Positions 24,063 to 63,867 of a DNA stretch of 64,000 nucleotides are shown here, one piece after another (the first letter of the stretch is position 1; each line of letters begins with the position of its first letter). Origin of the DNA: Bacilli bacterium (GTDB lineage Bacteria; Bacillota_I; Bacilli_A; RFN20; CAG-826); NCBI GenBank assembly GCA_017468925.1, contig JAFUHI010000016.1:15769-79768 (forward strand). The letters are read 5' to 3'. The position numbers and the translations under genes are program-made. The notes beneath the pieces are model-generated. The model was not told where the DNA came from. It did no database searches and saw only the letters and a program-made list of their open reading frames with translations.

Positions 24063-24121
24063 ATTATTGATTTCCAGGTGCTTCCATTATGAAAAATGAT
24101 GATTTTTAAGAAAAAATTGCT

Positions 24122-40793: not shown

Positions 40794-40941
40794 GCTTCAA
40801 TTGGTCATTTAAATGAATAAATGACTACTCCTTTCTATAATTGTCTTTATTAGATTGTTATTCAAAAATTGGTTATTTGCATCTACTTTTTTATTTGCCT
40901 GATGAAAATGCAAATTATTGATAAGGATAAACTATAATCCG

Positions 40942-41871: not shown

Positions 41872-41872
41872 G

Positions 41873-42814: not shown

Positions 42815-42815
42815 A

Positions 42816-44186: not shown

Positions 44187-44198
44187 TTTCTTTTCCTC

Positions 44199-46721: not shown

Positions 46722-46722
46722 C

Positions 46723-49002: not shown

Positions 49003-49248
49003 ACCAGCCTCCTATCCATGCCTTTCCTTGAAAGTACTTGCTTTCCTAAATTATATTATCTAAAAAGATAATCGTTAACCAAATGGGTCAAATCATGCCA
49101 AGTCATTACAAAATAAAAATGAAAAACTAAAAAATGATATTTGTTTTTTGTTGATGCTTTTCAACTAAAATATGCGAATTTATCTAGCATTTATTTGTGT
49201 TGTTCCCAGCAATAAATCAACTTCAACGAAAAAAGACAACATAAAAAA

Positions 49249-50073
49249 ATGATAAAGATAATATATAATAATCGCATGATGATAGAATACGAATCGCAGG
49301 CCGATAGCAGCTTCTATTGCTATTTCGTCAAGTCGGGGACTGTCTTCCGCGATAGCATCCTCTACACGATAAAATGCACGCCTCATTTCCATAGGAACGT
49401 CGAATTCCTTTTCATCACGGATGGCACCCAGACAGTCAACGTCAATGGTGAGAAGATGACATTAGGGAAAGGCGACATCCTCTTCGTCGATTCCTACACC
49501 CCGCATAGCTATGACGATTGCGAGGCGGAAGCCTATATCCTTGTCTTATCCACCACATTCTTCGACCCCTTCAAGACATTCTTCGATGGAGGCGTCTTCC
49601 CAGAGATCATGGATGATAAAGAGAGAAACAAGGAGATATTCGCCTTCATTGAGAAGTGGCATCTGGAAAGAGGGAAGAAAGAGGACAAATATTCGACCTT
49701 CCTCAAATGCAATGAGCTTTTCCGCCTCATGGTGGACGTCTATGGAGTGAGGATGGCTGTCCATTCGAGGCAGAATGGCCTAGTGATAGACGCGTTGATA
49801 TACATCGAGGAGAATTATTGCGGCCCCATCACCCTCGAATCATGTTCCAAGGCCATCGGTTATTCAAAAGAATACGTGTCAAAGCAATTCAATTCCGTCA
49901 TGGGCATATCGTTCAAATCCTACGTCAATAGCCTCCGCATCAAAAGATTCAGGTCCCTTGAGCAGACGGAGAAAGGCTCAAAGCAGGACTTGGCCGCCAA
50001 ATGCGGATTTAGCAGCGTCACCACCTTCTATCGGGCCTTGAGCCACAGCGATGAGGGCGAGACCCCTAATTGA
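49249..50073 (+). CDS. AraC-family transcriptional regulator (cupin sensor plus AraC HTH)
   Basis: 274 aa. C-terminal ITLESCSKAIGYSKEYVSKQFNSVMGISFKSYVNSLRIKRF. Divergent from the sugar operon. Confidence 0.8.
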   Translation: MIKIIYNNRMMIEYESQADSSFYCYFVKSGTVFRDSILYTIKCTPHFHRNVEFLFITDGTQTVNVNGEKMTLGKGDILFVDSYTPHSYDDCEAEAYILVLSTTFFDPFKTFFDGGVFPEIMDDKERNKEIFAFIEKWHLERGKKEDKYSTFLKCNELFRLMVDVYGVRMAVHSRQNGLVIDALIYIEENYCGPITLESCSKAIGYSKEYVSKQFNSVMGISFKSYVNSLRIKRFRSLEQTEKGSKQDLAAKCGFSSVTTFYRALSHSDEGETPN

Positions 50074-50407
50074 TGTAGGTTTTGAGGAGATTTCCGTATT
50101 CTTCCATCAAATGCTTAAGCATCTTCCTGGTGCGGCCCCTCTTGTTTTTGCCATAGACCATCATATTCATGACGGTCTTGTTGCCCCGTATCCTCTGGCT
50201 GAAGGAGATTGTCACCTCAAAGCCGAGGTACCAGTAATATATCTCATAATAGGCGTTATTGGTCTTGAGCCCGTAATAACCTTTATCCTCGATATGCTTC
50301 TTGACAAGATGAAAAGCCCTTTCGCATGAGGAGGTTATCTCAAGGGGTTTGACTGGCGCCCCCTTCTCCTCGCTGGTGAATGAGCAATTCTCGAATAACG
50401 CTATCAT
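50066..50407 (-). CDS. Hypothetical protein co-transcribed with the ABC ATPase
   Basis: 113 aa. Its start overlaps the ATPase stop by 4 nt. No recognisable motif. Confidence 0.4.
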   Translation of the reverse strand: MIALFENCSFTSEEKGAPVKPLEITSSCERAFHLVKKHIEDKGYYGLKTNNAYYEIYYWYLGFEVTISFSQRIRGNKTVMNMMVYGKNKRGRTRKMLKHLMEEYGNLLKTYIN

Positions 50408-51846
50408 ACGATCCTTTTTGTGCTCTCCGCGTCAAAGAAATGGATGCGGTCCATATCAAGGCAATATTCCTTGGCCTCGCCCATCTCAATCGAGTCGATG
50501 GCGCTTGTCTTGACCACAACCTTCGTATCTCCGATGTAATTGTAGATAATTAGCTCCTGACCCAATAATTCCGACAGATCGCAGGTCATTTTGAACGAGG
50601 AGGAGAGATTCGTCTTGGTTTTATCTCCCTTTAACATGATATTCTCTGGGCGGACACCAAGGACGACATCCTTGCCTTCATATCCCTTCAATGCCTCGGC
50701 GTGGCTCTTATCTAGTTCAATCGATATGCCTCCCTCATCGGCAATGAAGCGGGATGAAACGACCTTGCCTTTGATGAAATTCATCGCCGGTGAGCCAATA
50801 AACCCGGCGACAAAGAGATTATTCGGGGAATTGTATAATTCTTTTGGCGAGCCAATCTGCTGGATATAGCCATCTTTCATGCAGACAATCCTAGTCGCCA
50901 TGGTCATGGCCTCGGTCTGGTCATGGGTGACATATATCATCGTGACGCCTAAGGCCTTATGAATCTTGGAAATCTCAGTCCTCATCTGGACCCTAAGTTT
51001 CGCATCGAGGTTGCTCAAAGGTTCATCCATGAGGAACACTTTCGGGTTCCTGACGATGGCTCTGCCTAACGCCACCCTCTGTCTCTGGCCGCCTGATAAG
51101 GCGGCAGGCTTCCTTTTGAGATATGGCTCAAGGCCGATGGTCTCGGCGGCCGAGTTGACCTTCTCCATTATTTCCTCTTTCTTGTAGCGTCTATATTCGA
51201 ATGCCGGCTTATCAAGCGTCGCCTTGACCTTATCCATCTCCTCTTTGATTGATGGGTCTTTGGATGAGGCATATTGCTTTTTCAATTCCTCATACCTCTC
51301 ATGGTCATAGGTCAAGACCCTCTTCTGGTGGGCTTTCTTGACTTTATTGATCTCCATGTCCCTATCGAGTTCGCAGTGGTAGATATAATCCTTTATCTCT
51401 TCTTTGATGGCCTTTTTGCCTTTCAATTCTTTGATGCCTTCCTTCTTCTTATCATCATATTTTCTGCGGATTTCCTTTATCTCCGTGGATAAGGCCTCCT
51501 TACCATCCAGCTCATAGGCTGGGAAGAGGTCTTTCCTCTGCTGCAGGGAGAAAGCCATGTTCTCATAAACCGTGAGATGGGGATATAGGGCGTAATTCTG
51601 GAACACCATCGCGATATTCCTATCCTTTGGGGGGACATCGTTGATCAATGTGTCATCGATATATATCTCGCCTGAGCTTATCTCCTCGAGGCCGGCGACC
51701 ATTCTCAAAGTCGTGGATTTGCCGCATCCGGACGGCCCGACGAAGACGATGAATTCCTTGTCATCGACATCCAGGTTGAAATCGAACACGGCCTGGACGT
51801 TATTCGGATAAATCTTGTTTACGTTGCGGAAATGAAGCTTTGCCAT
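50404..51846 (-). CDS. ABC sugar-transport ATPase (MsmK/MalK/UgpC-like) with a K/E-rich insertion of about 115 aa
   Basis: 480 aa. Walker A GPSGCGKST, Q-loop FQNYALYPHLT, signature LSGGQRQR, Walker B FLMDEPLS, and a C-terminal TOBE-like domain. Confidence 0.85.
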   Translation of the reverse strand: MAKLHFRNVNKIYPNNVQAVFDFNLDVDDKEFIVFVGPSGCGKSTTLRMVAGLEEISSGEIYIDDTLINDVPPKDRNIAMVFQNYALYPHLTVYENMAFSLQQRKDLFPAYELDGKEALSTEIKEIRRKYDDKKKEGIKELKGKKAIKEEIKDYIYHCELDRDMEINKVKKAHQKRVLTYDHERYEELKKQYASSKDPSIKEEMDKVKATLDKPAFEYRRYKKEEIMEKVNSAAETIGLEPYLKRKPAALSGGQRQRVALGRAIVRNPKVFLMDEPLSNLDAKLRVQMRTEISKIHKALGVTMIYVTHDQTEAMTMATRIVCMKDGYIQQIGSPKELYNSPNNLFVAGFIGSPAMNFIKGKVVSSRFIADEGGISIELDKSHAEALKGYEGKDVVLGVRPENIMLKGDKTKTNLSSSFKMTCDLSELLGQELIIYNYIGDTKVVVKTSAIDSIEMGEAKEYCLDMDRIHFFDAESTKRIV

Positions 51847-52254
51847 AAAGACTCCCTCCTAATCATTAAAACATTATCACCTAGGTTTCTGTCAATAAAT
51901 AACATTTCGATGGTTAAGGCGAACATGCAACATTTTGTTAGATGTATCCTAAAAAATGAACGCGGCATGGCTATTTGAAGGAGAAATTGCACTTCTTGCA
52001 TCGATGGCCATCCTTGTCTTTGATGATGGATGAGCCACACCACGGGCACTTGCCTGTCTTCAAGGCGTATTCCCAAGCCAGGGGTGGTAGGAATCGAGTT
52101 TTGTACGTGGCGCATGGGGAATCGATTCCTTCCTACCCTGGATTTTTGGGTTGATTTGAATGAATTGGGGCCCATTTTTCTCATCGTGACAAATATCCTC
52201 GATAATACCAATTTGGGTCAAAAATGCCGATGTTTATTATAATTATATAATAAA

Positions 52255-52281
52255 ACGACCGTGACAGGTCGTCTCATTTTT
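52255..52281. terminator. Hairpin with flanking A/T runs (possible bidirectional terminator) at the right edge of the GC-rich island
   Basis: aaaACGACC-gtgaca-GGTCGTctcattttt. Confidence 0.4.
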
Positions 52282-52303
52282 AGCTGTGGCATTGTAGAAC
52301 TAT

Positions 52304-52360
52304 TTTGATACAAAATCTTTAGTTTCATACCCTTAGGGTTTTCTTCATACCCCTTACTTT
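52304..52360. repeat. 20-bp-phased direct repeats, locus A (core CATACCC(C)TT)
   Basis: TTGATACAAAATCTTTAGTT / TCATACCCTTAGGGTTTTCT / TCATACCCCTTAC. The core starts at 52326 and 52346. Confidence 0.7.
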
Positions 52361-52674
52361 TTATAGATGCTCATCTTGTCGGCGGATTCACTTTTTAAAA
52401 CTCCGACTAATGCAATAATCCCATGTTCTGTATATACAAAAGGCAATTTTTGTTTTCCGCCTCTGCCAATATTTGAGGTCGCATTTTGCGACTTCAAAGT
52501 TTTAAATTCTATAGAATTTAGTTGAAAGCAAAAGTCTTTTGGAACGCTAATTTTTATATCACAGTTATTATGTTCATAAATAAAAAAGTTAAGGCCTTAA
52601 ACCCTAACTTCTCTACCATTATAGAATTTAAATGGTATCGTTTTATCCTTATAGACCACAACTGACTCCACCAT
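52354..52674 (-). pseudogene. ORF6N-domain (KilA-N/Bro-N-like antirepressor) gene with an in-frame stop
   Basis: The minus strand reads MVESVVVYKDKTIPFKFYNGREVRV*GLNFF..VPKDFCFQLNSIEFKTLKSQNATSNIGRGGKQKLPFVYTEHGIIALVGVLKSESADKMSIYKK*. There is a TAA at 52597-52599. The second half matches the ORF6N pattern FP.DF.FQLT..E...L.SQ..TS...GG.R.LPY.FTE.G..ML..VL.S..A. Confidence 0.5.
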
Positions 52675-52839
52675 CAATCGCCACGTTGATTCATTCCACA
52701 CTATTAGAATTTTAGGAACACCATTAGAACCACTAATATGGATAAAACGGTATTTTTCCCTATCTTAGGCGTTTTTACAGATACAATATTCAATGCAATC
52801 AAAGAAAAAGAACTGATACATTTTGTAGCTGATTGGTAA

Positions 52840-54327
52840 TTAACTAATAATTCTACAAGCTGGTCTCACACCTAACCATGCAGCGTAAGAAGCAGCGTAA
52901 GAAGCACCGGTTAAGAATAATTGACCATCTTCTACGACGTGGTAAATATTGCCTCCACTAAAACTTCTGGTCCAATAATACATGGAGATGTTTCCGTTGT
53001 CTTCTGCGTATCCACTTAATGGTAAATCATAGCTGTTACATCTAGCGTAGTCGGTGGAGTAAGCAACTCTACCACTAGTGTAATGGAAGCCATAATTGCT
53101 GTTTTTATCGTAAAGAGTTGAATAGGAAAGCGGGAACATTTTCGCATACATATCGTTTTCTGGCGCACCACTTAAATTGCCAGAATATAATCTTGAATCT
53201 CGATTGCTAGGAAGCATCTTGTTATATAAAGCATTCATGAAAACCCCTAAAGCAGTCGAGGTTGTATAACTAGTAGGATTGTTACCAGCAGTATCAAAGA
53301 TTGATGTATCAAGAATCTTTTCGCTTGTTACTACATAACATAATCTTTTAAGTGTTGCAGAATCATATTTGGCATCAATATATCTCCATGTCACTGGTTC
53401 AACTTTAAACCAATAATATTCATCTTTGACATATTCGTTGTTATATCCGGTTCCTTTAGCTTGAGCCCTTTTAAAGAAGTCTCCATCTAATAAATAATAT
53501 CCATTATCAAGCGGTAAAAACGATTCTGGATTTTCTTGATACAACGCCTCATAAACTTCTGAAATATCACTTAATGTTTGTGGATAATAACCATATGTCC
53601 AATCATTTCCGACCTTTATAGGTTCTACATCAAATTGATCGGAGAATAAATCTTCTCTAACAGCAGCGTCAGTTCTTAAACTATCGCAGGAATAGCAAAT
53701 CTTAATTGATTTGATGTTTATTCGGCCGTTTGTGTATTCGGTTTTAAAATCTTTTGAACCAGTGATTTTAAAATACCTTGGTTCTAAGTCGCTCATATCA
53801 TATGGAGTGTCTGGAGATAAATCATGTGAAGTCGTTTCATATAGAAGACTTCCTTGCGAATCAACATATCCAAACAAGATTTTCAAATCACCAACTTCTC
53901 CACCAGATGTATCTGTTGGATTATCAACATAATTAGTTTGACGACAATAATCGACGGTGATAGATGTAATCCCGGAAATTCCATGACCAGATGCATTATT
54001 TAGATATGAGTAAGAATCATTATCTCTAAAAGATAAAAACGCTTCACCTCCACCGTAAAATGGGAAGCTGCCATACGAAACTCTAGCATCTCCAGTTTTA
54101 TAAAAATTAAATGACCAACTTCCAGAATCTGTTGAACTTCTTAATAAATTACTTGTCACTTTGGTGCAATTTGTAGCACTCATCGTAATTGAATATTCAC
54201 TAGCTGGAACTCCACGATTAAGAGCAAAAGCATTTATTCCAAGATTATTGGAGGCAAAAAGCGTTGTCGCAACTACCGCAGCACAAAATGTTGCTGTTAA
54301 CATTAGAAGCAAGCTTTTTTTATTCAT
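52840..54327 (-). CDS. Exported protein with C-terminal DUF6273-like domain
   Basis: 495 aa with an N-terminal signal/anchor. The C-terminal half has VTWRYID.., YYWTRSF.. and LGVRPACRI, the W-R-V-L / YWWLRS / GVRPA pattern I associate with DUF6273. Confidence 0.5.
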   Translation of the reverse strand: MNKKSLLLMLTATFCAAVVATTLFASNNLGINAFALNRGVPASEYSITMSATNCTKVTSNLLRSSTDSGSWSFNFYKTGDARVSYGSFPFYGGGEAFLSFRDNDSYSYLNNASGHGISGITSITVDYCRQTNYVDNPTDTSGGEVGDLKILFGYVDSQGSLLYETTSHDLSPDTPYDMSDLEPRYFKITGSKDFKTEYTNGRINIKSIKICYSCDSLRTDAAVREDLFSDQFDVEPIKVGNDWTYGYYPQTLSDISEVYEALYQENPESFLPLDNGYYLLDGDFFKRAQAKGTGYNNEYVKDEYYWFKVEPVTWRYIDAKYDSATLKRLCYVVTSEKILDTSIFDTAGNNPTSYTTSTALGVFMNALYNKMLPSNRDSRLYSGNLSGAPENDMYAKMFPLSYSTLYDKNSNYGFHYTSGRVAYSTDYARCNSYDLPLSGYAEDNGNISMYYWTRSFSGGNIYHVVEDGQLFLTGASYAASYAAWLGVRPACRIIS

Positions 54328-54384
54328 ATTGTCATACCTTCCTTAATCATTTCACAACCGTATAAACATTCATTGGTTTGCACA

Positions 54385-55074
54385 TTAAACAGCTGGTGCG
54401 TTAACTTGGCTTCCGGTCTTGAATGAAGAAACCTTGAATGTCGCAGAACCACTTTCGCCTTCATAGGTTTTACCATTTGCATCCCAGAATAATGTGATGC
54501 CAATTTCTTTATCGATAACGGTAGTTAAATGAACCTCACCCGCATATACAGTTAAATCATAACGATATTCTGTCGCGCTTCTTCCTGCGAAAGTCAAATC
54601 CTTAACTTTGTGGTATCCTTCCATGCCATCATATGCGTTAGCCATGAAAAACACTGCAGTGTAACTAGTTACATACGAGTTATACACTTCAACAGCATCA
54701 GATTCTGAATATGTATAAGTTTGTACATAGCTTTGTGTTTCTGAATCATATTCAAAAATATCTAAGCCACTATCAGTCCTTTTAATGGCTTCTATATCTG
54801 CACCATCATCTTGCCAAGCAATATTGTCTTTCATACCGAAGGTATAATTGACAATCTCTTCATCATCATCGTCATAAGCTTGATAGGTAATTTCAAAGCC
54901 ACTTGTCTCACCAAGCTGCAATAATTTGTTTTTAGCTTGTTCTTGGGTATATGGCAGGTTTTCTCCTGTCTCATCATCTCCTGGATTAACGATGTTTTCG
55001 ATCACACCGCACCCAGCCAATGAAAAAATTGATAAAACAGATAAAACTAACAAGCTCTTGATTTGTGTTTTCAT
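54385..55074 (-). CDS. Lipoprotein, unknown function
   Basis: Start at the ATG at 55074, with a GGAGG SD 9 nt upstream. Lipobox SLAGC. Confidence 0.55.
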   Translation of the reverse strand: MKTQIKSLLVLSVLSIFSLAGCGVIENIVNPGDDETGENLPYTQEQAKNKLLQLGETSGFEITYQAYDDDDEEIVNYTFGMKDNIAWQDDGADIEAIKRTDSGLDIFEYDSETQSYVQTYTYSESDAVEVYNSYVTSYTAVFFMANAYDGMEGYHKVKDLTFAGRSATEYRYDLTVYAGEVHLTTVIDKEIGITLFWDANGKTYEGESGSATFKVSSFKTGSQVNAPAV

Positions 55075-55186
55075 AATTAAATTTCCTCCCAAACAAAATA
55101 AAATTTTTATTTATCAATTTGAGAATATAGAAAAAATTAGCACAATAAACCAGTGCCATAAGTCATTCCAAAAGTCACTATTTATT

Positions 55187-55825
55187 CTATTTGTTTGTTT
55201 TGACCAAATGATTGTCTAAAGCAAAACGCGTTAAAGCGGCGCGGCTCACGCAATATGATTTAGAAAGCATTAAGGAAACAATGTTTTTCACTGTCCCTAC
55301 TTGTAGAGATAATTTAGCAGCAATTTCTTTATTGGAATCACCATTGCAGATATATTCGAGTATCTGTAATTCTCTTTCCGAAAATTTGCATTCTTTTTCA
55401 ATTTTTTCTTTATTTTTTAAGATTTCTAACGCGGCTTTATCAACAACATTAATGCCGTCCATCACGCTGAGCAACGCTTGTCTTAATTGATTGGATTCAA
55501 TGACCTTTAAAAGAAAACCATCACATCCAGCTTCTATAGAACGAGATATTGTATCGACATCATCAAAAGTGGATAAAGCAACTGTACGGACATTTGGATA
55601 TTTATTTTTAATAATTCTAATGGTTTCAATACCATCTAATACCGGCATTCTTATATCGATAAGAGCGATATCTACAGGTGTGTTTTCTAATATCGATAAT
55701 AATTCTTGTCCATTATTCGCAGTATTAATGACAACAAAATCATCCCATTTTTCAATAGTAACTTTTAATCCTTCAATTGTGATTGGGTGATCATCTGCGA
55801 TAATTATTTTTATTTTGTCCATCAT
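55187..55825 (-). CDS. NarL/FixJ-type response regulator (REC plus LuxR HTH)
   Basis: 212 aa. IIIADDHP, DIALIDIRMP, and HTH SNKEIAAKLSLQVGTVKNIVSLMLSKS. Confidence 0.85.
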   Translation of the reverse strand: MMDKIKIIIADDHPITIEGLKVTIEKWDDFVVINTANNGQELLSILENTPVDIALIDIRMPVLDGIETIRIIKNKYPNVRTVALSTFDDVDTISRSIEAGCDGFLLKVIESNQLRQALLSVMDGINVVDKAALEILKNKEKIEKECKFSERELQILEYICNGDSNKEIAAKLSLQVGTVKNIVSLMLSKSYCVSRAALTRFALDNHLVKTNK

Positions 55826-56764
55826 TTATTTACTCCACTTTACTATTATTTTAAACCCTTGTCCTTCTTGATGCACAAAGTCTATTTTCCCTTTGGAAGC
55901 AACGACATTATCTTCCATTGAGGCAAGTCCGAAACCTTTTTCAAATTCTCCATGCCACTTCCCATCATCATAGATTTCCAAAAATACATCTTTCTCATTC
56001 ATTGTTAAATTAATAAACATTTGGTTGCCCAAAGAATGGTCTAATGTATTGTGATAAGCTTCTTTACAAATTTTTTTAATTAATTTGTATTGTGTCTTAA
56101 TAAAGTCAGGTTCTTCGCCAATTATAGTAATCACAATTGGGAATTCAGAAATCTTAGATAAAGAAGTCAAAAGTTCTTTCAAAGAACCGGCTTCAAATTG
56201 GTCAGGAGATAAAATCTTGTCAATGATCTTCTCACCTTCAATAATTAATTGTTTATAGGTTTTCGGATTATTGTTTTTGGACTCTAAACACATATTAGAA
56301 ATCATAAATAAGTCCGTTATTGCGTGGCCGTAATTATCATGGATGACTCTTGCTAATCTTATTTGTTCAGCATAATCAGATAATGACTTGATTTCTTCTA
56401 AAAGATTTTCTAATTCTTGATTAGACTCTCTTAAACTATTGGCAAGAACTTGAAGTTCCTTTTGTTTTTCTTGTTTTCGATTGTTAATTGACTCTTTTTC
56501 TGTAATATCAATTAAAACAACAGCATAATTAATTAGTAGCTCATCGTCATATATTTCTTTAGTAATGCGTTTAAAAAAGATGTTGTTATAAACAAATTTA
56601 CCTTCTTTATTTTGCAAACAATCAGGTATTAAATCAGTTAACTTTTTCCCTTTTTTAATGCCTTTGAAACCAACACGTTTGTTGTATTTCAAAATATAAC
56701 CAAAAGAATCTAGGATGAAAAATGGTGAAGGGAAACTATCGAATATAGTCTTATAATTATTCAT
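55826..56764 (-). CDS. Soluble histidine kinase (PAS-like plus HisKA_3 plus HATPase_c)
   Basis: 312 aa, no TM. H-box RLARVIHDNYGHAITDL, N-box KEAYHNTLDHS, G-box GFGLASMEDN. Confidence 0.8.
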   Translation of the reverse strand: MNNYKTIFDSFPSPFFILDSFGYILKYNKRVGFKGIKKGKKLTDLIPDCLQNKEGKFVYNNIFFKRITKEIYDDELLINYAVVLIDITEKESINNRKQEKQKELQVLANSLRESNQELENLLEEIKSLSDYAEQIRLARVIHDNYGHAITDLFMISNMCLESKNNNPKTYKQLIIEGEKIIDKILSPDQFEAGSLKELLTSLSKISEFPIVITIIGEEPDFIKTQYKLIKKICKEAYHNTLDHSLGNQMFINLTMNEKDVFLEIYDDGKWHGEFEKGFGLASMEDNVVASKGKIDFVHQEGQGFKIIVKWSK

Positions 56765-58022
56765 TAGCGCTTACCCCACTTAATTTATTAACTGCTTTTC
56801 TAATGATCATAATTGTTTCTTGACATAAAGTAGCGGTTTCCTTAAGTAATGCTTTGCTATTTTTTGGATTATTCTTAAGGGCGATAAAATGTTCTTTAAT
56901 TATTGCTATATTCGATAACACTATTTTTTGAGCATTAGTCAAGCTAGTAACCTTTTCTTTTAAATCTGGTAAATCATACAAAGCATTAATATAGGTTTGT
57001 ATTGTATTCTTTTTCTCATTTAAATCGTTGATGAGTTTTTCTGCTTCAACAATACTTTCTTCGATTGCTTTTCTTTCTAAATAAACATCATCAATATTGT
57101 TGATAATGATTAATTCATTGTCGTCATCTTTATTTATTTCAATATAGAAATGACTATCATAAAAAACAAGTTCAAATGACTTGACATTATTTTGCTTATT
57201 AACCTCTTCTATCGCTTTATCAACCAGCTCTTTCTTTTCTTTATTGTTTTGATAAAGAATGCCTTTTTGCGGATTGTATAGAACCACTATATTTGGAATT
57301 TCTTCTAAAACACTTTCAATTGATTTGCTAATCAAACTAAGTGAATTAAATTTAAAGACGATGATATACAGGCAGAAGACAGCGACAAACATAATGATTG
57401 GTGTAAAATCAAGCTCATCAACTCCAGTAATAGACCTCACCAACGCTGTAACGGCCGGCAAAAGCGGATATAAGGAGAAAACGATTATCTTAATAGCCTT
57501 GTTCTTTTCTTTTCTAATGATATGAATGATAGATATGATATAGCCTATGAACAAGGCGGCATAAACCAATACCAAGCATAGATAAAATAGTTTTCCGTGC
57601 TGAACCTGTTCTCCCATCACTAATTTCTCATAAAAGAGATGATGCAGTGAATTTGTACAAACAAAAATAGAGATAATAGCAGCAACAGAAAATAAAACTA
57701 TTCTAAAAATCGCTTTATTTGCTAGTTTATCGCATCTTGCTAAATATAGGTTCCAAAGCAAGAAAGCAAACGATGCAAATGTGGTTCCGACAAGTTGGTA
57801 ATAAACGGCAAAAACGTAAAAATCGTTATTTGGATAAAAGATATAAGCGATGGTCTCTAAAAACCTACCAGAAACCATAATCCATAAGCCAATAACAACC
57901 ACAATAAAAAAGTGCCATATAGGTGTTGGTTTTCTATTTTTAATTAAAGAAACGATAAAAACCAGATGAATAGGTAAGTATATACCTTGCAAAACAAAAT
58001 TAAGAATTCTATACCATTCCAT
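56757..58022 (-). CDS. 7-TM membrane protein with cytoplasmic coiled-coil domain (candidate sensor partner of the soluble kinase)
   Basis: 421 aa. About 7 TM helices, then a soluble region of about 190 aa with no kinase motifs. It overlaps the HK start by 8 nt. Confidence 0.5.
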   Translation of the reverse strand: MEWYRILNFVLQGIYLPIHLVFIVSLIKNRKPTPIWHFFIVVVIGLWIMVSGRFLETIAYIFYPNNDFYVFAVYYQLVGTTFASFAFLLWNLYLARCDKLANKAIFRIVLFSVAAIISIFVCTNSLHHLFYEKLVMGEQVQHGKLFYLCLVLVYAALFIGYIISIIHIIRKEKNKAIKIIVFSLYPLLPAVTALVRSITGVDELDFTPIIMFVAVFCLYIIVFKFNSLSLISKSIESVLEEIPNIVVLYNPQKGILYQNNKEKKELVDKAIEEVNKQNNVKSFELVFYDSHFYIEINKDDDNELIIINNIDDVYLERKAIEESIVEAEKLINDLNEKKNTIQTYINALYDLPDLKEKVTSLTNAQKIVLSNIAIIKEHFIALKNNPKNSKALLKETATLCQETIMIIRKAVNKLSGVSANE

Positions 58023-58270
58023 ATTCTAATTTTATAGGACAATAATCATTTTGATTATGCCGAATTATAGAGTCTTTTTCCATAAAGGCATATATTTTTA
58101 ACCAGTATTGAGAATATGATTTTTTGATTCAAATCAAAAAATGGCCCGTTTTAGAACGAACCATAAAAGCCATATTTATAAAAAGCTAAATTATATCTAA
58201 GAAAAAAGAACTGACACTATTGTATCAAACCCGTTGTTCTTTAATGGGTTGAGTATATCTTTTTAATACA

Positions 58271-58332
58271 ATGCATACACCCCAGCCATTTTGCATACAG
58301 CGAGGTGAATTTGCATACACCCCTTAAGTTTT
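58271..58332. repeat. 20-bp-phased direct repeats, locus B (core TGCATACACCCC)
   Basis: TGCATACACCCC at 58273, TGCATACAGCGA at 58293 and TGCATACACCCC at 58313. They lie immediately 3' of the ToxN-like ORF and about 250 bp upstream of 56757..58022. Confidence 0.75.
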
Positions 58333-58344
58333 AAAGAAAAATAG

Positions 58345-58761
58345 TTAAATTAATTTATTATCAATTAAATATTTCTCTATTTCCTTGAATGGTAAAATTG
58401 CGTCATACACCTTAGCATTTTCCTCACTTCTCAAAAACGCCTCATTGTTTTTGAAATTGTATAACTGTTTTGCTTTCTTGGTGATTTTTCCTTGATTTTC
58501 ACTAACCCATTTAAATTCATCGGAAACAATATCTTTGTATGCAGAATCAGGTTCGTTTTCAATTGAATAACCTTCAACATATTTCATTGGAATTGGAATC
58601 ATGTTAATCAATTTAATTGTGCCTAATAGTACGCGAATTCCATTTTCACCATCTTTAGTCATGTAGATGGAGAATATGGAATTCTTCTTAATTGATCCAT
58701 CTGTTTTTAAATCTTTTATTTTCGGAGAGGAAAATGGAGCATAGTAGTTAAAATTTCCCAC
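58345..58761 (-). CDS. ToxN/AbiQ-family type III toxin-like endoribonuclease (N-terminus apparently truncated or frameshifted)
   Basis: YYAPFSSPK, GTIKLINMIPIP and YKDIVSDEFKWVSENQGKITKKAKQLYN parallel ToxN YLAPLTSPK, INLKFMIPI and YKRMLYKQLQFIRANSDKIASKSDTL. The frame stays open upstream of the GTG to 58851 (..FFYENRFHRSHTRKYVGVIFTV..) with no in-frame ATG. Confidence 0.6.
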   Translation of the reverse strand: MGNFNYYAPFSSPKIKDLKTDGSIKKNSIFSIYMTKDGENGIRVLLGTIKLINMIPIPMKYVEGYSIENEPDSAYKDIVSDEFKWVSENQGKITKKAKQLYNFKNNEAFLRSEENAKVYDAILPFKEIEKYLIDNKLI

Positions 58762-58810
58762 AGTGAAAATAACACCAACATATTTTCTTGTATGAGAGCG
58801 ATGAAAACGA

Positions 58811-58886
58811 TTCTCATAAAAAAATGCTCCATTATGGCGGAGCGCACCTAGTCATAAAGCTCCTGCATTTACGGCTGAGGGTCACC
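58811..58886 (-). ncRNA. Two degenerate 38-nt tandem repeats in the ToxN-like leader (candidate ToxI-like antitoxin RNA)
   Basis: Minus strand U1 (58886-58849) is GGTGACCCTCAGCCGTAAATGCAGGAGCTTTATGACTA. U2 (58848-58811) is GGTGCGCTCCGCCATAATGGAGCATTTTTTTATGAGAA. About 27 positions align once small gaps are allowed. Confidence 0.4.
58818..58843 (-). terminator. Hairpin plus U7 between leader repeats and ToxN-like coding region
   Basis: Minus strand: GCTCC-gccataat-GGAGC-A-TTTTTTT. The upstream GGAGC in U1 could form an alternative pairing with the same GCTCC. Confidence 0.4.
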
Positions 58887-58907
58887 GGCTTATTTCTAAG
58901 CATCTAT

Positions 58908-58937
58908 ATTATCACTTGTGGCCACAGGCTATGTCAA
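58908..58937 (-). promoter_or_regulatory. Sigma-70-type promoter for the ToxN-like locus
   Basis: Minus strand: TTGACA, 18-nt spacer, GATAAT (also readable as an extended TGATAATAT). Confidence 0.5.
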
Positions 58938-59016
58938 AAAGAATATCTTTGATATTAGAAGGATTTATTAGTAAAAAGTAAGGTCTTAACTTATCTTTCG
59001 AATCTTATTTTATATT

Positions 59017-59520
59017 TTAACTATTGATTAGAAACACAAAATCAATGATAAAACATGTAACTAATAAAACAAATAAAACAAACGATAAAGCGGCTTTGAA
59101 ATAAATTTGCCTCTTTATTGTTTTAATCGCTCTAACCAAAGACATAACGCCAAGGAAACCACTTAGAAACATGAATATAAGTAGAGGCATGATTCTGGTA
59201 ATGCCAGAAGTATTTCCAACCGCGTTTATTATCCAAAGTGCAATAGAACAGCCGATTAACGCTAATGGGACTGGCAAAAACTGTTTGACTGGTTGCTCAT
59301 GAATAGGAACTCTAGCCCCTTTAATTTTAGCGTTAGCATTAGTTTTAGGAGACTCTTGATTAGCAACCGGTTTTTCTTGTTTTGGCTGTTCAGTTGGCTT
59401 TTCTTCAGCTGGTTGAGGAGCTGGTTTTTCTATAACCACTTCTTCCACTTTAGTTCCACATTTTGGGCAGAATAAGGCGTCATCACCCATAGGAGCGCCA
59501 CATTTAGTACAGTATTTCAT
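59017..59520 (-). CDS. Zinc-ribbon domain membrane protein
   Basis: 167 aa. MKYCTKCGAPMGDDALFCPKCGTKV, a P/E/Q-rich linker, then 3 TM helices. Confidence 0.65.
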   Translation of the reverse strand: MKYCTKCGAPMGDDALFCPKCGTKVEEVVIEKPAPQPAEEKPTEQPKQEKPVANQESPKTNANAKIKGARVPIHEQPVKQFLPVPLALIGCSIALWIINAVGNTSGITRIMPLLIFMFLSGFLGVMSLVRAIKTIKRQIYFKAALSFVLFVLLVTCFIIDFVFLINS

Positions 59521-59523
59521 AAA

Positions 59524-61014
59524 CTATTCTCCTCTCACCCAATGATAGGCACCATCACTATTTTGGAAATTTCCACAGCTTTTAATTGTGTAAGTATAAG
59601 TTCCTCCCAAAGTACCAAAGTTTTTAATCTCGTGCTTTGGTATTTCAATAATTAGCTTGGAACCTTGAATTTTATAAGTGCCTGACATATAGTTATCAGG
59701 GGCAAAATCACTGGCTGAAACATTATCATTGACGCGGCTAGAATAACAGGCCGTGCCATCAGATTTAACTAACCATGCAGTATAGACCACTTGGACAACC
59801 CCGCCACCACTGCGTAGTCCATCTTCTACATAATAACCATATTTGAAACAGCTAGCGCCACCGGCTCCACCAGTCATTCCACCCGCAAGACAACCTAATC
59901 CAACAACAGAAATGACCAAGGTTCCCGCTAGAGAAGCGATAATCCAAATAGGAGGTTTGCCAGATGGATGTTTTTTGGACCAAAGAATAAAGAAAGCGAT
60001 TAATCCACCAGCACCTAATACTGTAAATGTAATTCCTAAGCCAAGAGTGACATTGCCACTGTTAGTGGTAGAAGACTTAGATGGTGTTGTACTTCCTCCG
60101 CCACCGCCACCTTGATTCTCTTTATAGTTTACTTGAATAACTGGTCTGACGCCGATTTTCGGATCATCCATTAAGCACTGCGAATAAGCAACTTTTGCCC
60201 AACAAACTTGAATTCTATCGGTTTCGCTAGAAAGAGTGTTTAACCAATAACCAGCGTTAAGATAAGGAAGGCCAATGCCATGATTATAAGAACTATGACT
60301 GGTGAGATTTTTTAAAATAGCATAATCGCTGGCTTGTTTTAGATTCTTGTCTTCATAACCATCTAAATCGACATCATCTTTTTCTGGAATATCAATATGA
60401 AATTTTGTCAACCCTCCAGAACCATATGCAAGATATTTGAGATCGTCGTTAGAAAAAGACATTTCCTTGAAATTATTATTTAAATAATTAAATAAAGAGG
60501 AATGGTAATAATCGACATGTTCAGCGAGACTTTGATTATATATTTCTCTATCTAAAATATTTGTGGAAATGAGATAAGCTTTATCCGTATCATTTTTATC
60601 TATCTTTAAAAGCTGCCATTCAATAGTATTAAATTCAATGACAACGTTACTTTGACCATTATAATTGTTTATTGCTTCACCGTTAGATAATATACGACCG
60701 CTTGAACCTTCGGTATCCACTACGGCATTTTCAATGATTGCATATTTTTTATTGTGATAGGTGTAATATTTATTACCACCCGTTGTTGTCGTTACAGTTC
60801 CATTGGTTTTTATGTCATCCGCAGAAACGGTTGTCACAATATTTTGCGGATATTCACCTAATCTAACGATGCCTTCATCATCGAATTTAACATAAGAGAT
60901 ATCACTTGCCGCTTCTACTTTTTGGGCGCTATGTTTAAGTGAAGAAGATAAAAAACCTATCCCTAAAGCGGTGGTGAATATTCCAAAAAAGAATAATCCT
61001 AAACTCTTTTTCAT
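59524..61014 (-). CDS. Membrane protein with extracellular DUF6273-like domain, Gly-run linker, TM segments and a C-terminal beta-rich domain
   Basis: Start moved to the ATG at 61014 (MKKSLGLFFFG..), which has an AAAGGAGA SD. Motifs IEWQLLKIDKNDTDKAYLIS, AGYWLNTLS and IGVRPVIQV, then GGGGGGS, then 2-3 TM helices. Confidence 0.55.
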   Translation of the reverse strand: MKKSLGLFFFGIFTTALGIGFLSSSLKHSAQKVEAASDISYVKFDDEGIVRLGEYPQNIVTTVSADDIKTNGTVTTTTGGNKYYTYHNKKYAIIENAVVDTEGSSGRILSNGEAINNYNGQSNVVIEFNTIEWQLLKIDKNDTDKAYLISTNILDREIYNQSLAEHVDYYHSSLFNYLNNNFKEMSFSNDDLKYLAYGSGGLTKFHIDIPEKDDVDLDGYEDKNLKQASDYAILKNLTSHSSYNHGIGLPYLNAGYWLNTLSSETDRIQVCWAKVAYSQCLMDDPKIGVRPVIQVNYKENQGGGGGGSTTPSKSSTTNSGNVTLGLGITFTVLGAGGLIAFFILWSKKHPSGKPPIWIIASLAGTLVISVVGLGCLAGGMTGGAGGASCFKYGYYVEDGLRSGGGVVQVVYTAWLVKSDGTACYSSRVNDNVSASDFAPDNYMSGTYKIQGSKLIIEIPKHEIKNFGTLGGTYTYTIKSCGNFQNSDGAYHWVRGE

Positions 61015-61094
61015 AACTGCATATCTCCTTTCATTAAAGAAATATCTGGGCAACGATTTACCCAGACCTAAGAAGATATAATAGTTTTCTATTA

Positions 61095-61103
61095 CCCCCC
61101 CCC
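61095..61103 (-). repeat. Homopolymeric G9 (C9 on the plus strand) tract about 80 nt upstream of the start codon at 61014
   Basis: attaCCCCCCCCCgaag. It is the only G/C homopolymer of this length I noticed in the window, and it sits in an AT-rich intergenic region. Confidence 0.9.
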
Positions 61104-61309
61104 GAAGTTTTTGAATCGAGAGAGGCAAGGTAGTTGCTTATTAGTATTTTATCATAAAGATATGGACTTAATACAGGTTTTAGAAGATAAGAAAAAAGGC
61201 TGTTATAGCAATTATCTTTTAATACTTTGTATTAGTTACTTTCTATGACACATAACAAGAATTATGTGCACTTAAAATTTTACGTTATTTTAACTCGATG
61301 TTATAGATA

Positions 61310-62974
61310 TTATGCATCTTGGTAAAATCCTAAGTTCTGTTCATAGATATTTGTAACATTGTCGCTAAGAACACCATATTTGTCGGTATCATTTGAAACA
61401 TCTTCCTTTGTTGCCGTGCTTACTTCCATCACATGCAACTTTGAATCATTCGTATAGCAAACTGTCTTATACCAGAAGCCCGCTCCATAGGTTAAATCAT
61501 CTCCCAGTGAAGTTGTTTCATATGCAAACAAAACATCTGCATCGCTTCCAACTTTTGCTAAAAGATTATTTGTTCTTGATAATACATCGCTAATATCTAT
61601 AGATGTATCAATACTAATTATTTGAGTGACATTGAAGCATTGAGCATCGATATTGTATAAAGCAGAAGCAAGTTGCGTTTGTGTAGAAATTGTTTGATTC
61701 TTTATATTTGAAATGATTGTAGGACATGTAATTTCAAAAGTCTTGAATTGAGGTGTGTTAGGCATTTCTCTATTTTTGGCAAAGATGTAAAAAGTCATTT
61801 TTTCTTCGCTAATATCAATTAATTTTGTACTTCCATAAGACATTCTCGCTGAGAGCATTCCGGTAACAAGATCAACTTGATATGTGTTATTGCCTTTGAC
61901 ATAGTCTTCCCAAACGGGAAGGATGGCTGACAAATTGTATATACCATCTTGATAGATTACTTCACTATCATCGATTAAAGAAAAGACCACTTTCACATTA
62001 TCATAAGTGCAATCTGTTTTTACGCGGACTCGAACGTCATATTTGGCGTCTTTTTTAAATTCATAGACAGTTGTTGTTGTGTCAGGATAGAGCAAACTAG
62101 GTGTATGAATCACTTCAACCCAAGGTTCATTGTTAACGATTGGCCATTCGTTTTCGCACATAATTCCAAAATAATCACCGGGGTTATAATCCCATGCATA
62201 GGATAAAAACAATTTTTGTCCAGCTGTCACTTCGATATTATTGGCCTCATAATAGTCAAGTGTTCCATCAGATGTTCCTTTGGTGAAGGAAGCAAAAACA
62301 TCCCCCGCATCGTTATCACTTAAAAAATTAATGACCCACTCATCATATCGGATAAAACGCAGACTTATACCGTTTTCATAAAGCAAAAGGTCGTAATAAC
62401 CTCTGCCATATTCTTCGGAGTCGTCAAGATTGTAAATTTTCTCGTTGCCATCGCTTCCAAAACGAATAACATGGATTTCATCATCTGGCATAAAATGGAA
62501 GTTATAAATAGCTTTGATAGCATCAGAATCATCTTCGTGTGGTGTGCTTAAACGATATTGTTCTTGTTTATAATCATCAGGAAGAAAGACATCAACATCG
62601 TTCAAACGACCGTACAAATAATATTCGTATGTGATTTTATCCCATTTGGCATAGATGGTTTGGTCAGTTGCATAAGAAACATCGAAATTAAAAAGGGATG
62701 AATAACTATCATCAGTGAACCAACCACCAAAGGTGTATTCTTCTTTTTCTGGATCGTGAGGCTTTATAAATTTTTCTCCCACAACAACAGTTTGGGGAGC
62801 AATCTGGTCAACGCCTTCTCCTACTATAAATGTCGCAGTGACATAAGTTGGTATATTATCAGTACCACTTCCTGAACCATCGGGAACCATCGGATTGGTT
62901 GAGTTTTGCGCAGATGAGGTTGTGCAGCCAGCTAGAACCATTACGCTAAAGAATAATGTAATAATTTTCTTCAA
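61310..62974 (-). CDS. Surface lipoprotein with a Listeria-Bacteroides repeat
   Basis: 554 aa. TTG start with an AAAGGAGA SD. Lipobox LAGC. YTFGGWFTDDSYSSLFNFD..TIYAKW. Confidence 0.6.
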   Translation of the reverse strand: MKKIITLFFSVMVLAGCTTSSAQNSTNPMVPDGSGSGTDNIPTYVTATFIVGEGVDQIAPQTVVVGEKFIKPHDPEKEEYTFGGWFTDDSYSSLFNFDVSYATDQTIYAKWDKITYEYYLYGRLNDVDVFLPDDYKQEQYRLSTPHEDDSDAIKAIYNFHFMPDDEIHVIRFGSDGNEKIYNLDDSEEYGRGYYDLLLYENGISLRFIRYDEWVINFLSDNDAGDVFASFTKGTSDGTLDYYEANNIEVTAGQKLFLSYAWDYNPGDYFGIMCENEWPIVNNEPWVEVIHTPSLLYPDTTTTVYEFKKDAKYDVRVRVKTDCTYDNVKVVFSLIDDSEVIYQDGIYNLSAILPVWEDYVKGNNTYQVDLVTGMLSARMSYGSTKLIDISEEKMTFYIFAKNREMPNTPQFKTFEITCPTIISNIKNQTISTQTQLASALYNIDAQCFNVTQIISIDTSIDISDVLSRTNNLLAKVGSDADVLFAYETTSLGDDLTYGAGFWYKTVCYTNDSKLHVMEVSTATKEDVSNDTDKYGVLSDNVTNIYEQNLGFYQDA

Positions 62975-63370
62975 AATCGATATCTCCTTTAATATTCAAT
63001 ATTAACTCTTGTTCTATACACATAACAAGGATTATTCCTCATTGAATTAATTGTTATTAAATGAGCCATTAAGTAATGATTTAGATGCTTCATAATCATC
63101 GATGAATATGAACATTAAGCACGTTGTTAAAAACAAAAAGCGAACAAAATTAATGATTGTAGCCTATATGGAAACACATACTGTTTCACCAGAGGTTTTT
63201 CAAATAACAGGAATTATACCCTGATTTTAAGATGTCGTTATAACCACTACTATATTGAAACAGTTGAAATTAAAGAAAAAATGAGCATTTTAGCCCATTT
63301 TCTGCAACAACCCTCTATCTGTACTTTGTGTCAAAGCAATAATACTTTGGTGGCTCCATTGACCATCTAT

Positions 63371-63437
63371 GATACAAATTCGCACCCCTACAAAATTATT
63401 TGTACCCTTGCAAATTTATTCGCACCCCTGCTCTCGA
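63371..63437. repeat. 20-bp-phased direct repeats, locus C (core ATTCGCACCCCT / ATTTGTACCCTT)
   Basis: Cores start at 63381, 63401 and 63421 and are preceded by GATACAAA, as at locus A. About 400 bp upstream of 61310..62974. Confidence 0.75.
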
Positions 63438-63503
63438 AGAAAGAATTGTTTTTATTTTATAAAAGATACACTTATGATAAAGTAAAGTTGCTCGTATATT
63501 TAG

Positions 63504-63820
63504 ACCACAGGCGCTATGAACTAGCTAATAGCAAAGTCGACCATACGCAGGCACACTGTGGTAAATGAGTATGTGGGCTATCACACTACGTGTTAGGGTG
63601 TGGTGATAGGGAAAGTATTGCCCAGTAGTGATATGAGTCCTAAGGGAGGAGGTCGTAGGTAAAAGACGTCCTTAGGCACGAGAAGATCATCGCGCTCCCT
63701 ACAGTTATTTCATTTAATAATTGAGCATGTGGCCATCACAAGGATGATGTAACACCAGTAGTTACGGGACTTAGTCGATAACTACAAAAGGTGTTTTCAT
63801 TATGGTGATGGCTTTTATTA
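63504..63820 (+). ncRNA. Candidate structured RNA or 5' leader of unknown class
   Basis: No ORF on either strand. Perfect stems are ACCACAG/CTGTGGT (63504/63556), CTATCAC/GTGATAG (63578/63603) and CCTAAGG/CCTTAGG (63639/63670). A three-tier hairpin follows: GCCATCAC/GTGATGGC (63732/63805) enclosing AACACC/GGTGTT and GTAGTTA/TAACTAC. TTTTATTAT comes after it. Confidence 0.4.
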
Positions 63821-63867
63821 TCTCCTTCTGAAGGCACCACTAACGTTTATAGAAAGGAGGAATCAAT

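Follow-up and report, generated by a model that had tools for sequence, protein, structure and literature searches.

Three loci of short direct repeats, A, B and C, lie in the window (the whole stretch of DNA that was analysed, 64,000 nucleotides). On sequence comparison, they are apparently decayed copies of a widespread and seemingly undescribed module of Acholeplasma-like bacteria and phages. The reading we prefer, at a probability of roughly 60%, is that this module is a composite of a 52-bp recombination site and phased arm-type repeats, situated at the junctions of mobile cassettes.

Phased repeats and dyad sites in the window

Phased RYACCCY[T/A] cores were confined to loci A, B and C in the 64-kb window. 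Five pairs of these cores were found 20 or 40 bp apart, whereas 300 composition-preserving shuffles averaged 0.01 such pairs and never gave more than 1, and the three phased loci described in the initial annotation are thus real. Since the hexamer ACCCYT was not enriched in the window (34 observed versus 37.7 expected), the repeat signal lies in phasing and clustering. When self-similarity at an offset of 20 was scored over 40 bp, the maxima of the whole 64 kb were loci C (28/40), B (24/40) and A (23/40), with locus C alone exceeding the maxima at other offsets. A dyad scan located exactly three TG-centred sites in the window, all on the + strand. The features of the three loci are as follows.

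52262..52313, + strand: putative recombination site of locus A, hybrid type (dyad scan); right (P') half with TG at 52287-52288, inner 15 nt at 52289-52303 and right inverted repeat (IR-R) TTTGATACAA at 52304-52313
52314..52360, + strand: repeat array of locus A; unit 1 degenerate, cores CATACCCTT (52326) and CATACCCCTT (52346), 20 bp apart
52354..52497, - strand: C-terminal remnant (47 aa) of an ORF6N-domain protein; the stop codon directly borders array A
58200..58232, - strand: intrinsic-terminator-like hairpin at site B, in gene sense, GGGTTTGATAC-AATA-GTGTCAGTTC followed by T6
58220..58271, + strand: full 52-bp dyad site of locus B (dyad scan); left inverted repeat (IR-L) TTGTATCAAA at 58220-58229 (0 mismatches), TG at 58245-58246, IR-R TTTAATACAA at 58262-58271 (1 mismatch)
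58272..58326, + strand: repeat array of locus B, variant unit type; TGCATACACCCC (58272), TGCATACAGCGA (58292, degenerate), TGCATACACCCC (58312)
58345..58761, - strand: ToxN-family toxin remnant, 5'-truncated; Pfam ToxN_toxin E = 1.2e-18, profile positions 41-156 of 159
63326..63377, + strand: full 52-bp dyad site of locus C (dyad scan); IR-L TTGTGTCAAA at 63326-63335, TG at 63351-63352, IR-R TATGATACAA at 63368-63377
63371..63430, + strand: repeat array of locus C, 20-bp units; cores GCACCCCT (63382), GTACCCTT (63402), GCACCCCT (63422)

The shared orientation of the loci and the (G/A)ATACAA flank preceding the repeats were confirmed at A, B and C, and the distances given earlier from the loci to the minus-strand gene starts were correct. 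Three copies at exact 20-bp intervals had been described for every locus. All three were good units at locus C; at locus B the spacing of 20 and 20 bp held, with a degenerate middle copy. At locus A it held for the units at 52326 and 52346, while the supposed first copy, GATACAAAATC, proved to be conserved flank and not a repeat unit.

The family profile matched locus A at 52282-52360 (E = 2e-5), locus B at 58218-58272 (E = 7e-5) and locus C at 63326-63428 (E = 1.2e-14). Locus A retains the right half alone; in place of a left arm it has unrelated sequence, at the margin of a GC-rich island. The 5' arm of the hairpin at site B is the left inverted repeat of that site, and in two other copies, L154 and L071, the same site is followed by TGCGTACACC and TTGCACACA units similar to those of locus B. 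In one metagenome contig, 40 bp (two units) are missing from the locus C array.

The loci are more tightly related to the remnants of ORF6N and ToxN, both on the minus strand, at their 3' ends. The ORF6N remnant, which matched Pfam ORF6N at profile positions 55-86 of 86 with E = 0.0011 (under the curated cut-off), is cargo of the cassette ending at site A, and the ToxN remnant is cargo of the cassette ending at site B. With no recombinase gene anywhere in the 64-kb window, the partner half of site A lost, and decay under way in arrays A and B, the loci look like relics of past cassette accretion beside these remnants.

The module family and its putative exchange point

A pattern scan of reference genomes gave at least 120 loci, of which about 115 were true, versus about 17 estimated by chance. 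Nearly all listed loci were labelled Acholeplasma, Mariniplasma, Izemoplasmatales, Tenericutes or unclassified Bacilli/Bacillota; some were on short contigs binned into unrelated phyla, and the module was also present on six viral contigs. The family profile was built from about 110 related copies chosen by pattern, so ATACA and the first two cores owe part of their conservation to the selection itself.

The module has the layout TTGTATCAAA-N15-TG-N15-TTTGATACAA, followed by 2-5 units of about 20 bp (AaTTACGCACCCcT). The site is dyad-symmetric (10 + 15 + TG + 15 + 10 = 52 bp), and 65 full sites were found over all listed loci, those of B and C included. Each repeat unit pairs a conserved core of 13 bp with a spacer rich in A/T, and GCACCCCT is the family consensus core. 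Of 244 unit pairs, 194 were spaced by 20 bp and 42 by 21 bp, and the units share one helix face. The arrays begin at a fixed distance of 31 bp from the presumed crossover. A terminator-like left arm in the locus B layout was recognised by eye in most of 45 full sites inspected out of the 65; an automated criterion flagged only 8 of the 65.

The central TG was nearly invariant (1.6-1.8 bits) and exceeded every other position to the left of the inverted repeat in conservation, although the search pattern did not include it. Among pairs with right halves at least 90% identical, similarity stopped at the TG in 159 of 205 and no more than 3 nt from it in 180 of 205. The reverse case, different right halves joined to identical left arms, was also seen. 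Contigs of several independent metagenomes and metatranscriptomes matched the array and right half of one A. laidlawii copy; beyond the TG they parted company, with at least six distinct left arms among them. The flank comparison proposed in the initial annotation thus places the divergence of related copies at one fixed dinucleotide. These alignments support the central TG as the putative point of exchange in a 52-bp site-specific recombination site, but a boundary this sharp would also be expected if the TG were the mere terminus of a transposable unit.

The modules were co-oriented, spaced 1-7 kb apart, and separated accessory genes that share one orientation and come from very many families. 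Plasmid CP017949, a 93-kb replicon, carried five or six copies, and the window has three arrays within 11 kb. The neighbours of the approximately 115 listed copies belonged to more than 60 unrelated Pfam families per side, with restriction-modification, toxin-antitoxin, aminoglycoside-modifying and Fic genes among them. Copies bounded strain-variable accessory segments, and tandem cassettes, some of them without recombinase genes, were separated by att-like sites in the manner of SCC-type elements. The modules therefore came close to one suggestion made earlier, that of mobile-segment ends, as flanks diverge at the TG and variable segments are bounded; they probably mark the borders of swappable accessory-gene cassettes.

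Candidate enzyme and alternative readings

Large serine recombinases were the only recurrent recombinases near modules, at 11 of the approximately 115 listed loci; they were also found near the modules of L013, L015/L022 and L023, and a recombinase gene lay near the module in 4 viral contigs. They were often paired (~435 + ~525 aa). Among 11 low-GC relatives of these recombinases, six were followed at 0.1-3.8 kb by a right half plus array, oriented as expected, and five had no module within the flanking sequence examined. Most cassettes encode no recombinase, and none was found beside the modules in the cassette region of plasmid CP017949. The gene association suggests that a large serine recombinase most likely performs the exchange. 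Serine integrases need identical central dinucleotides in both partner sites (PMC5737554).

The closest competing explanations concern the nature of the TG boundary and the level at which the module acts. The TG could be the terminus of a transposable unit, with the repeats as subterminal transposase sites for an IS607-like or unknown transposase supplied in trans and the large serine recombinases as hotspot bystanders. The architecture does resemble the IS1535 left end, where phased direct repeats lie 20-60 bp from the terminus (PMC6188088); recombinases are absent from most cassettes, and modules often occur at real contig ends and beside IS elements. We nevertheless regard this as improbable: no segment carried an inverted or second array at its opposite end, no IS607-type TnpA recurred among 640 neighbouring ORFs, and the 10-mers are placed with exact symmetry on either side of the TG (15 + 15 nt), pointing to a dimer that spans a joined site. 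It is likewise doubtful that the array and the inverted repeats beside it work at the RNA level, either as a small C-rich RNA from the TGATACAAT -10-like box or as a 3'-UTR/attenuator with G-rich AGGGGUG repeats upstream of an antiterminator/terminator pair (three 10-mer copies), in both cases controlling read-through into the next cassette. The left arm is a canonical gene-sense terminator with G-U-compatible changes, IR-R' could pair with its 5' arm, and TGATACAAT is similar to an extended -10 box, but the terminator would greatly exceed a 10-bp antiterminator in strength. The module was over-represented in metatranscriptome contigs, and its depth was 6-20x that of its flanks in metatranscriptome runs versus 1-5x in likely DNA runs, although these contig depths combine both strands and are confounded by copy number. 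Terminators after the array were not enriched (motif sense 13%, gene sense 11%, shuffles 8%), no Rfam family matched, and action in RNA would leave the swapping of flanks at the TG unexplained.

The other two readings in the initial annotation fared poorly. A replication origin whose iterons bind Rep, within an integrated plasmid- or phage-like element, would account for tandem ~20-bp repeats with a conserved core (within the 17-22 bp iteron range), for unit sequences that vary between elements and for copies on phage contigs. This is very unlikely given diverse neighbour genes, no associated rep gene, 5-6 arrays on one 93-kb replicon and three in 11 kb of the window where one or two clusters per replicon are expected, and arrays always fixed 31 bp from the crossover site. 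Operator arrays for the window's NarL/LuxR-type response regulators can be virtually dismissed. Heptamers of the form TACYYMT, mostly placed 7-2-7 or close to the promoter, characterise NarL/LuxR operators. TACCCCT agrees with this heptamer, and the repeats run in direct orientation along one side of the helix, at coordinates upstream of minus-strand units, but the family core GCACCCCT contains CACCCCT, outside the consensus, and the units are direct at 20 bp. Furthermore, strains represented by L002, L005 and L009 have the identical regulator operon and no locus B, the window's first signalling operon is without such an array, and the genes beside copies are functionally unrelated.

Two further identities were rejected. 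Arrays of one contig share an orientation and no inverted array was found, contrary to a MITE or terminal-inverted-repeat transposon. The ToxI repeats of a type III toxin-antitoxin system would lie upstream of toxN and be followed by a terminator; array B is downstream of the truncated toxN, and genes of more than 60 other, unrelated families precede the module elsewhere.

Proposed mechanism and known systems

In the recombination-site model, exchange would take place at the central TG of the 52-bp dyad site, performed by a large serine recombinase, often one of a pair. The repeat-side arm would move together with the genes on the repeat side, and the other arm would also be the intrinsic terminator opening the next cassette. 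The 20-bp repeats are most likely accessory protein-binding sites for the recombination complex; as helically phased, arm-type sites they would assemble or regulate it.

Known systems share parts of this design. Like the module, attP-type sites (Bxb1, phiC31, A118) are imperfect dyads of about 50 bp with their strongest inverted repeats distal, and att sites of large serine recombinases have an invariant central dinucleotide at which exchange occurs; in the module's phage-like relatives, a recombinase gene is near the site as well. The module differs in its accessory repeats, which to our knowledge no known att site of this class needs, and in a left arm doubling as a transcription terminator. 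Known integrases recombine attP only with attB, while many chromosomal junctions of the module look P|P', and attP x attP exchange is, as far as we know, abnormal for these enzymes.

SCC and pseudo-SCC islands with CcrAB have a serine recombinase pair of similar sizes (~440 + ~530 aa), co-oriented cassettes accreted in tandem with att sites between them, many cassettes without recombinase genes, and a cargo of resistance, restriction and defence genes. Module-associated recombinases are not Ccr equivalogs (106-149 bits against NCBIfam CcrB, cut-off 900), no rlmH target was seen for module cassettes, the att sequences are unrelated, and we know of no phased 20-bp arrays at SCC ends. One-sided recombinase-binding repeats beside a crossover site are found in Tn3/gamma-delta res, Sin resH and the Tn4430 TnpI IRS, where they give the reaction directionality or topological selectivity. 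The role of those systems is to resolve cointegrates inside a single transposon or plasmid; they bound no cassette arrays and differ in subsite geometry.

In the IS607 family, the serine transposase binds to four direct repeats in helical phase that lie at 20-60 bp from the end of the element, and at the IS1535 left end the enzyme nucleates on such repeats ~20 bp from the junction; the IS1535 repeats are 9 bp with a phase of ~10-11 bp, versus the module's ~20-bp units (PMC6188088). The protein that binds IS607 repeats is a small TnpA whose N terminus carries an HTH domain; no such TnpA was found near modules, and IS607 ends have no dyad site across the junction.

Integrons, like the modules, have co-oriented cassettes of very diverse accessory genes, each ended by a recombination site with the exchange point inside it. 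No recurrent tyrosine recombinase (IntI) was found among the 640 neighbouring ORFs or beside the CP017949 array. Unlike the folded attC palindrome, the module consensus has inner 15-mers that are not self-complementary, and module cassettes differ from integron cassettes in holding 1-7 genes with a terminator at the start.

More tentatively, wall-less Bacilli (Acholeplasmatales, Izemoplasmatales and relatives) may possess an integron-like form of gene capture by serine recombinases. Terminator-first, array-last cassettes would be cut out, swapped and stacked, always at the TG-centred 52-bp sites, by large serine recombinases acting in trans from phages or other cassettes, and the 20-bp arrays would license recombination between like sites. 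If so, these arrays would represent a new class of accessory site.

Repeats and dyad sites at loci A, B and C

A self-similarity scan of the whole window (offsets 15-25) placed the three best offset-20 positions at loci A, B and C, with locus C alone exceeding the self-similarity reached at other offsets. Pairs of RYACCCY[T/A] cores 20 or 40 bp apart were found five times, all on the + strand and all within the three loci, versus a mean of 0.01 and a maximum of 1 in 300 shuffles of the window; the bare hexamer (ACCCYT) was not enriched in the window. The shuffle control thus confirms the non-random phased repeats reported by the initial annotation. Its count of three phased copies per locus held for the phasing but not for the "first copy" of locus A, which is the conserved flank GATACAA and not a unit. 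A profile built from family copies matched locus C with E = 1e-14, locus A with 2e-5 and locus B with 7e-5. The three loci are genuine, being real, non-random and mutually related. One contig was without two of the units at locus C.

Sites and repeat units at the three loci. Gene sense is opposite to the sense of the array of repeats.
52262-52313, + strand: site A, right half only, joined to unrelated DNA
52326 and 52346, + strand: locus A, two good units, CATACCCTT and CATACCCCTT, read directly
58200-58232, gene sense: left-arm terminator of site B, from the sequence read
58220-58271, + strand: site B, full dyad
58272 and 58312, + strand: locus B, TGCATACACCCC at both, with a degenerate copy between, read directly and stacked in 20-mers
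63326-63377, + strand: site C, full dyad
63382, 63402 and 63422, + strand: locus C, cores GCACCCCT, GTACCCTT and GCACCCCT, three clean 20-bp units, read directly

The consensus of the site and its array (together, the module), in the + orientation of the window, is tTGTATCAAA-cctatgctttcaata-TG-tgttgcatgacctat-TTTGATACAA-TTAC, after which come 2-5 units AaTTACGCACCCcTannaaa. The two 10-mers are symmetrically arranged inverted repeats, each 15 nt from the central TG. Although the TG lay outside the search pattern, no position to the left of the right-hand repeat is more strongly conserved in the family profile. Of 244 unit spacings, 194 were 20 bp and 42 were 21 bp. No further convincing site was found in a dyad scan of the window.

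Read in gene sense, the left arm forms an intrinsic terminator of canonical form (AGGTTTGATAC-loop-GTATCAAACC, then T6-7), a layout recognised in most of the full sites that were inspected visually, the automatic flag being too strict (8/65). Each segment between modules therefore opens with a terminator and closes with an array and right half-site. A small hairpin, CATGCAGAAAGGG-N7-CCCTATCT, is conserved at the start of many such cassettes, ~25-30 nt past the left-arm terminator (e.g. the related loci L041, L043, L065, L067 and L074). A sigma-70 promoter at the site was rejected on direct reading, there being no -35 box at 16-18 nt and the TACAAT belonging to the inverted repeat. Integration targeted to tRNA genes was likewise set aside, since ARAGORN placed no tRNA directly abutting the modules in ~115 listed loci; the left arms of L133, L131, L105 and L034 resemble tRNA 3' fragments (e.g. 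GAGTTCAAATCTCATTATCTCCG), where ARAGORN calls none.

Distribution and gene context of the module

Scanning viral contigs with a three-unit pattern returned 14 loci, five of which (L013, L015, L022, L018 and L023) carry T(G/A)ATACA, five bases and then at least three phased RYACCCYT cores. Another, L012, has phased cores without the ATACA flank: three TTGCACACCCYT repeats in 20-nt phase (3378-3525, - strand) lie between a promoter-like TGTTATAAT box and the ribosome-binding site of a HAD hydrolase. No dyad site was present at these repeats, which may be a chance occurrence or a similar type of repeat put to use independently. The genome scan, with a two-unit pattern plus the ATACA flank and one genome per species, gave at least 120 loci, with ~17 chance matches estimated; ~115 of the matches listed were true modules. 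Carriers among the matches listed were mostly labelled Acholeplasmataceae, Mariniplasma, Izemoplasmatales, Tenericutes/Mycoplasmatota or unclassified Bacilli/Bacillota, and some listed modules were on short contigs whose bins are assigned to unrelated phyla. Some carriers are in culture, among them A. laidlawii 8195, A. granularum, A. equifetale, Peloplasma aerotolerans and strain MO-XQ. Many copies lie ~100-200 bp or less from true contig ends, as repeated DNA would give. In several genomes (L062, L104, L105) an IS-like end sequence, GGTAATATAAAAGTAGACACCCCC, directly follows the array, which suggests an insertion sequence with a preference for these modules.

By blastn, GenBank phages gave no module match and plasmids a single one, where the module is unannotated. 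Literature searches with the literal sequence returned unrelated papers only, two array-core strings gave no informative result, and keyword searching for integron-like systems of Acholeplasma retrieved nothing relevant. By such literal-sequence and keyword searching we found no description of the module.

The array-side nearest ORF is on the opposite strand in ~90% of copies, with its stop 60-300 bp from the module, and that same opposite strand carries the first ORF on the other side in 72%. Neighbours are diverse: 91 on the array side fall in 61 Pfam families (including restriction enzymes, AAA_14/DUF4143, aminoglycoside-modifying enzymes, GGDEF and transposases), and 91 on the other side in 73 (including MazE, HsdM, Fic, Schlafen/AlbA_2, PadR and GNAT). 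Many loci hold two to four co-oriented modules at 1-5 kb spacing, and on the 93-kb plasmid CP017949 five or six modules within 17 kb bound groups of one to seven genes. This gene context is the organisation of a cassette array, not of a regulon.

Exchange point, candidate recombinase and proposed role of the repeats

Among 205 pairs of copies with right halves at least 90% identical, contiguous similarity stopped at the TG in 159, and no more than 3 nt from it in 180. Identical left arms (up to ~60 nt) were joined to differing right halves and arrays, and the same break at the TG was seen between L015 and L022, between L002 and L009, and between two copies in L071. When contigs of eight public runs were compared with one A. 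laidlawii module copy, those of several runs matched its array and right half as far as the TG, where they split into six or more different left arms. The flanks of related copies thus part at a fixed TG, as expected of the ends of mobile segments, a reading listed in the initial annotation, and it is well supported that loci A-C are mobile junctions.

The attP sites of serine integrases, e.g. that of Bxb1, are ~50 bp long with distal inverted repeats. Large serine recombinases were the only recurrent recombinase family near modules (16 ORFs at 11 loci, among 640 neighbouring ORFs), often as an adjacent pair of ~435 and ~525 aa reading toward the module, an arrangement repeated in four viral contigs. 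In L013 the site lies between the integrase side and the phage replication genes, as for an intact attP. These proteins are generic large serine recombinases and not Ccr equivalogs; their nearest solved catalytic domain is that of a clostridial conjugative-transposon recombinase. We compared 80 viral relatives of the larger recombinase, of which 11 are low-GC. A right half-site and array were found 0.1-3.8 kb downstream, in the expected orientation, in six of these 11, with varying unit cores (TTCGCACCC, TGCGTACACC, TGTGCGG, GCACCCCT and ATACCCCT); the higher-GC clostridial relatives had no module. Serine integrases require identical central dinucleotides in their partner sites (PMC5737554).

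Against this enzyme, most cassettes are without a recombinase, and none was found in any window cassette or beside the CP017949 cassette array, where only IS3-type transposases, HTH and APH genes and GmrSD fragments were seen. That replicon encodes two large serine recombinases, both in a prophage that adjoins a tRNA and has no module. Junctions that join a left half-site to an array-side right half-site, of the P|P' type, imply exchange between like sites. To our knowledge classical phage integrases do not exchange like sites; SCC-type Ccr recombinases are more permissive in this respect. A large serine recombinase is moderately supported as the enzyme of the module.

As for the 20-bp repeats, we infer that they would have an accessory role in recombination at the DNA level. 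Several features argue for this: the array starts at a fixed 31 bp from the crossover and stands on one side of the site only, its units are helically phased, each having a conserved core of 13 bp plus an A/T-rich spacer, their number varies from 2 to 5 across copies, and the architecture is kept while unit types differ between elements. A direct precedent within the serine-recombinase superfamily is IS1535 TnpA, for which four phased direct repeats, 20-60 bp from the end of the element, serve as the nucleation site (PMC6188088). An RNA-level role for the array or module appears unlikely. In metatranscriptome contigs the module was 6-20 times as deep as its flanks, versus 1-5 times in likely DNA runs, as such a role might give, but these depths do not distinguish the strands and copy number confounds them. 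The idea of a small RNA ending in a terminator of its own was rejected, as the frequency of terminators after the array was not raised over that in the opposite sense or in shuffles, and a known RNA family was rejected as Rfam was blank at the modules of the window and of CP017949.

Standing of the window loci

The genes flanking loci A-C are all on the minus strand. Array A starts where a 47-aa ORF6N remnant has its stop codon, and array B lies 13 bp beyond the stop of a ToxN-family ORF (58345-59016) without the N-terminal ~40 residues of the domain. Because this ORF is truncated and no ToxI-like tandem repeats were found in the 256 bp upstream of it, the locus is the remnant of a type III toxin-antitoxin system.

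The leading proposal of the initial annotation, that the repeats are response-regulator operators, did not survive strain comparison. By exact-protein look-ups the response-regulator operon is present on 21 metagenome contigs. Three of them (L002, L005 and L009) keep an operon identical to that of the window and yet have neither locus B nor the ToxN remnant, so that locus B is part of strain-variable DNA rather than a conserved operator. L002 has DUF3800, TIR and zeta-toxin-like genes, among others, in their place. We conclude that loci A-C are very unlikely to be regulatory sites of the adjoining two-component signalling operon or of the lipoprotein gene. At the position of locus B, both L009 (240-300) and L002 (7480-7560) have a site of the locus B type with other contents: two CAACCGAAC-type repeats at a 21-bp distance in L009, and a degenerate right half with no repeats in L002.

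A GC-rich block (38379-52250, GC ~0.48 versus ~0.35) has its right end just left of locus A. This island, which abuts site A, looks recently acquired. It carries sugar-ABC and very large genes, and its DNA is 70-76% identical to 18230-20476; its ABC ATPase was on only 3 contigs versus 21 for the response regulator. The left border was rejected as a partner site, being just an ordinary terminator at 38.3 kb. No alternative strain arrangement was found at site A in the three contigs with the ABC ATPase, all of which have the same layout.

Other elements were observed in the window. An Rfam COG3943 RNA (RF02941; 63691-63794, + strand; 75.7 bits versus a gathering score of 71.8) is located 260 bp to the right of locus C; the 117-aa ORF downstream of it (63868 to beyond the window; full length at L001:1605-1958) had no family match. 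Stretches 63493-63633 and 63728-63821 are GC-rich and structured-looking. In gut metagenomes (goat, sheep and others) their contig depth is 5-20 times the flanking depth, implying a conserved element present in multiple copies; 63493-63633 had no Rfam match. Two 48-nt direct repeats (23958-24005 and 24020-24067; 92% identical, 62 bp apart) each hold an inverted GGTGGAAA...TTTCCACC motif.

Compared with known systems, the module appears to work like a serine-recombinase att site, its setting resembles an SCC accretion island, and its accessory repeats resemble those of res or IS607. It lacks one or more defining features of a NarL operator, iteron, MITE, ToxI repeat, integron attC site or Ccr element. 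Loci A-C look like relics, the borders of past cassette insertions. The module accounts for assembly breaks and mis-binned short contigs, and in practice can serve as a sequence tag locating cassette borders in metagenomes. If it works as inferred, it would define a trade of defence, resistance and surface genes across a small-genome lineage and its phages. Phased accessory repeats beside the crossover would, if true, be an unusual addition to serine-recombinase biology and would bear on the control of directionality and partner choice in enzymes widely used for genome engineering.
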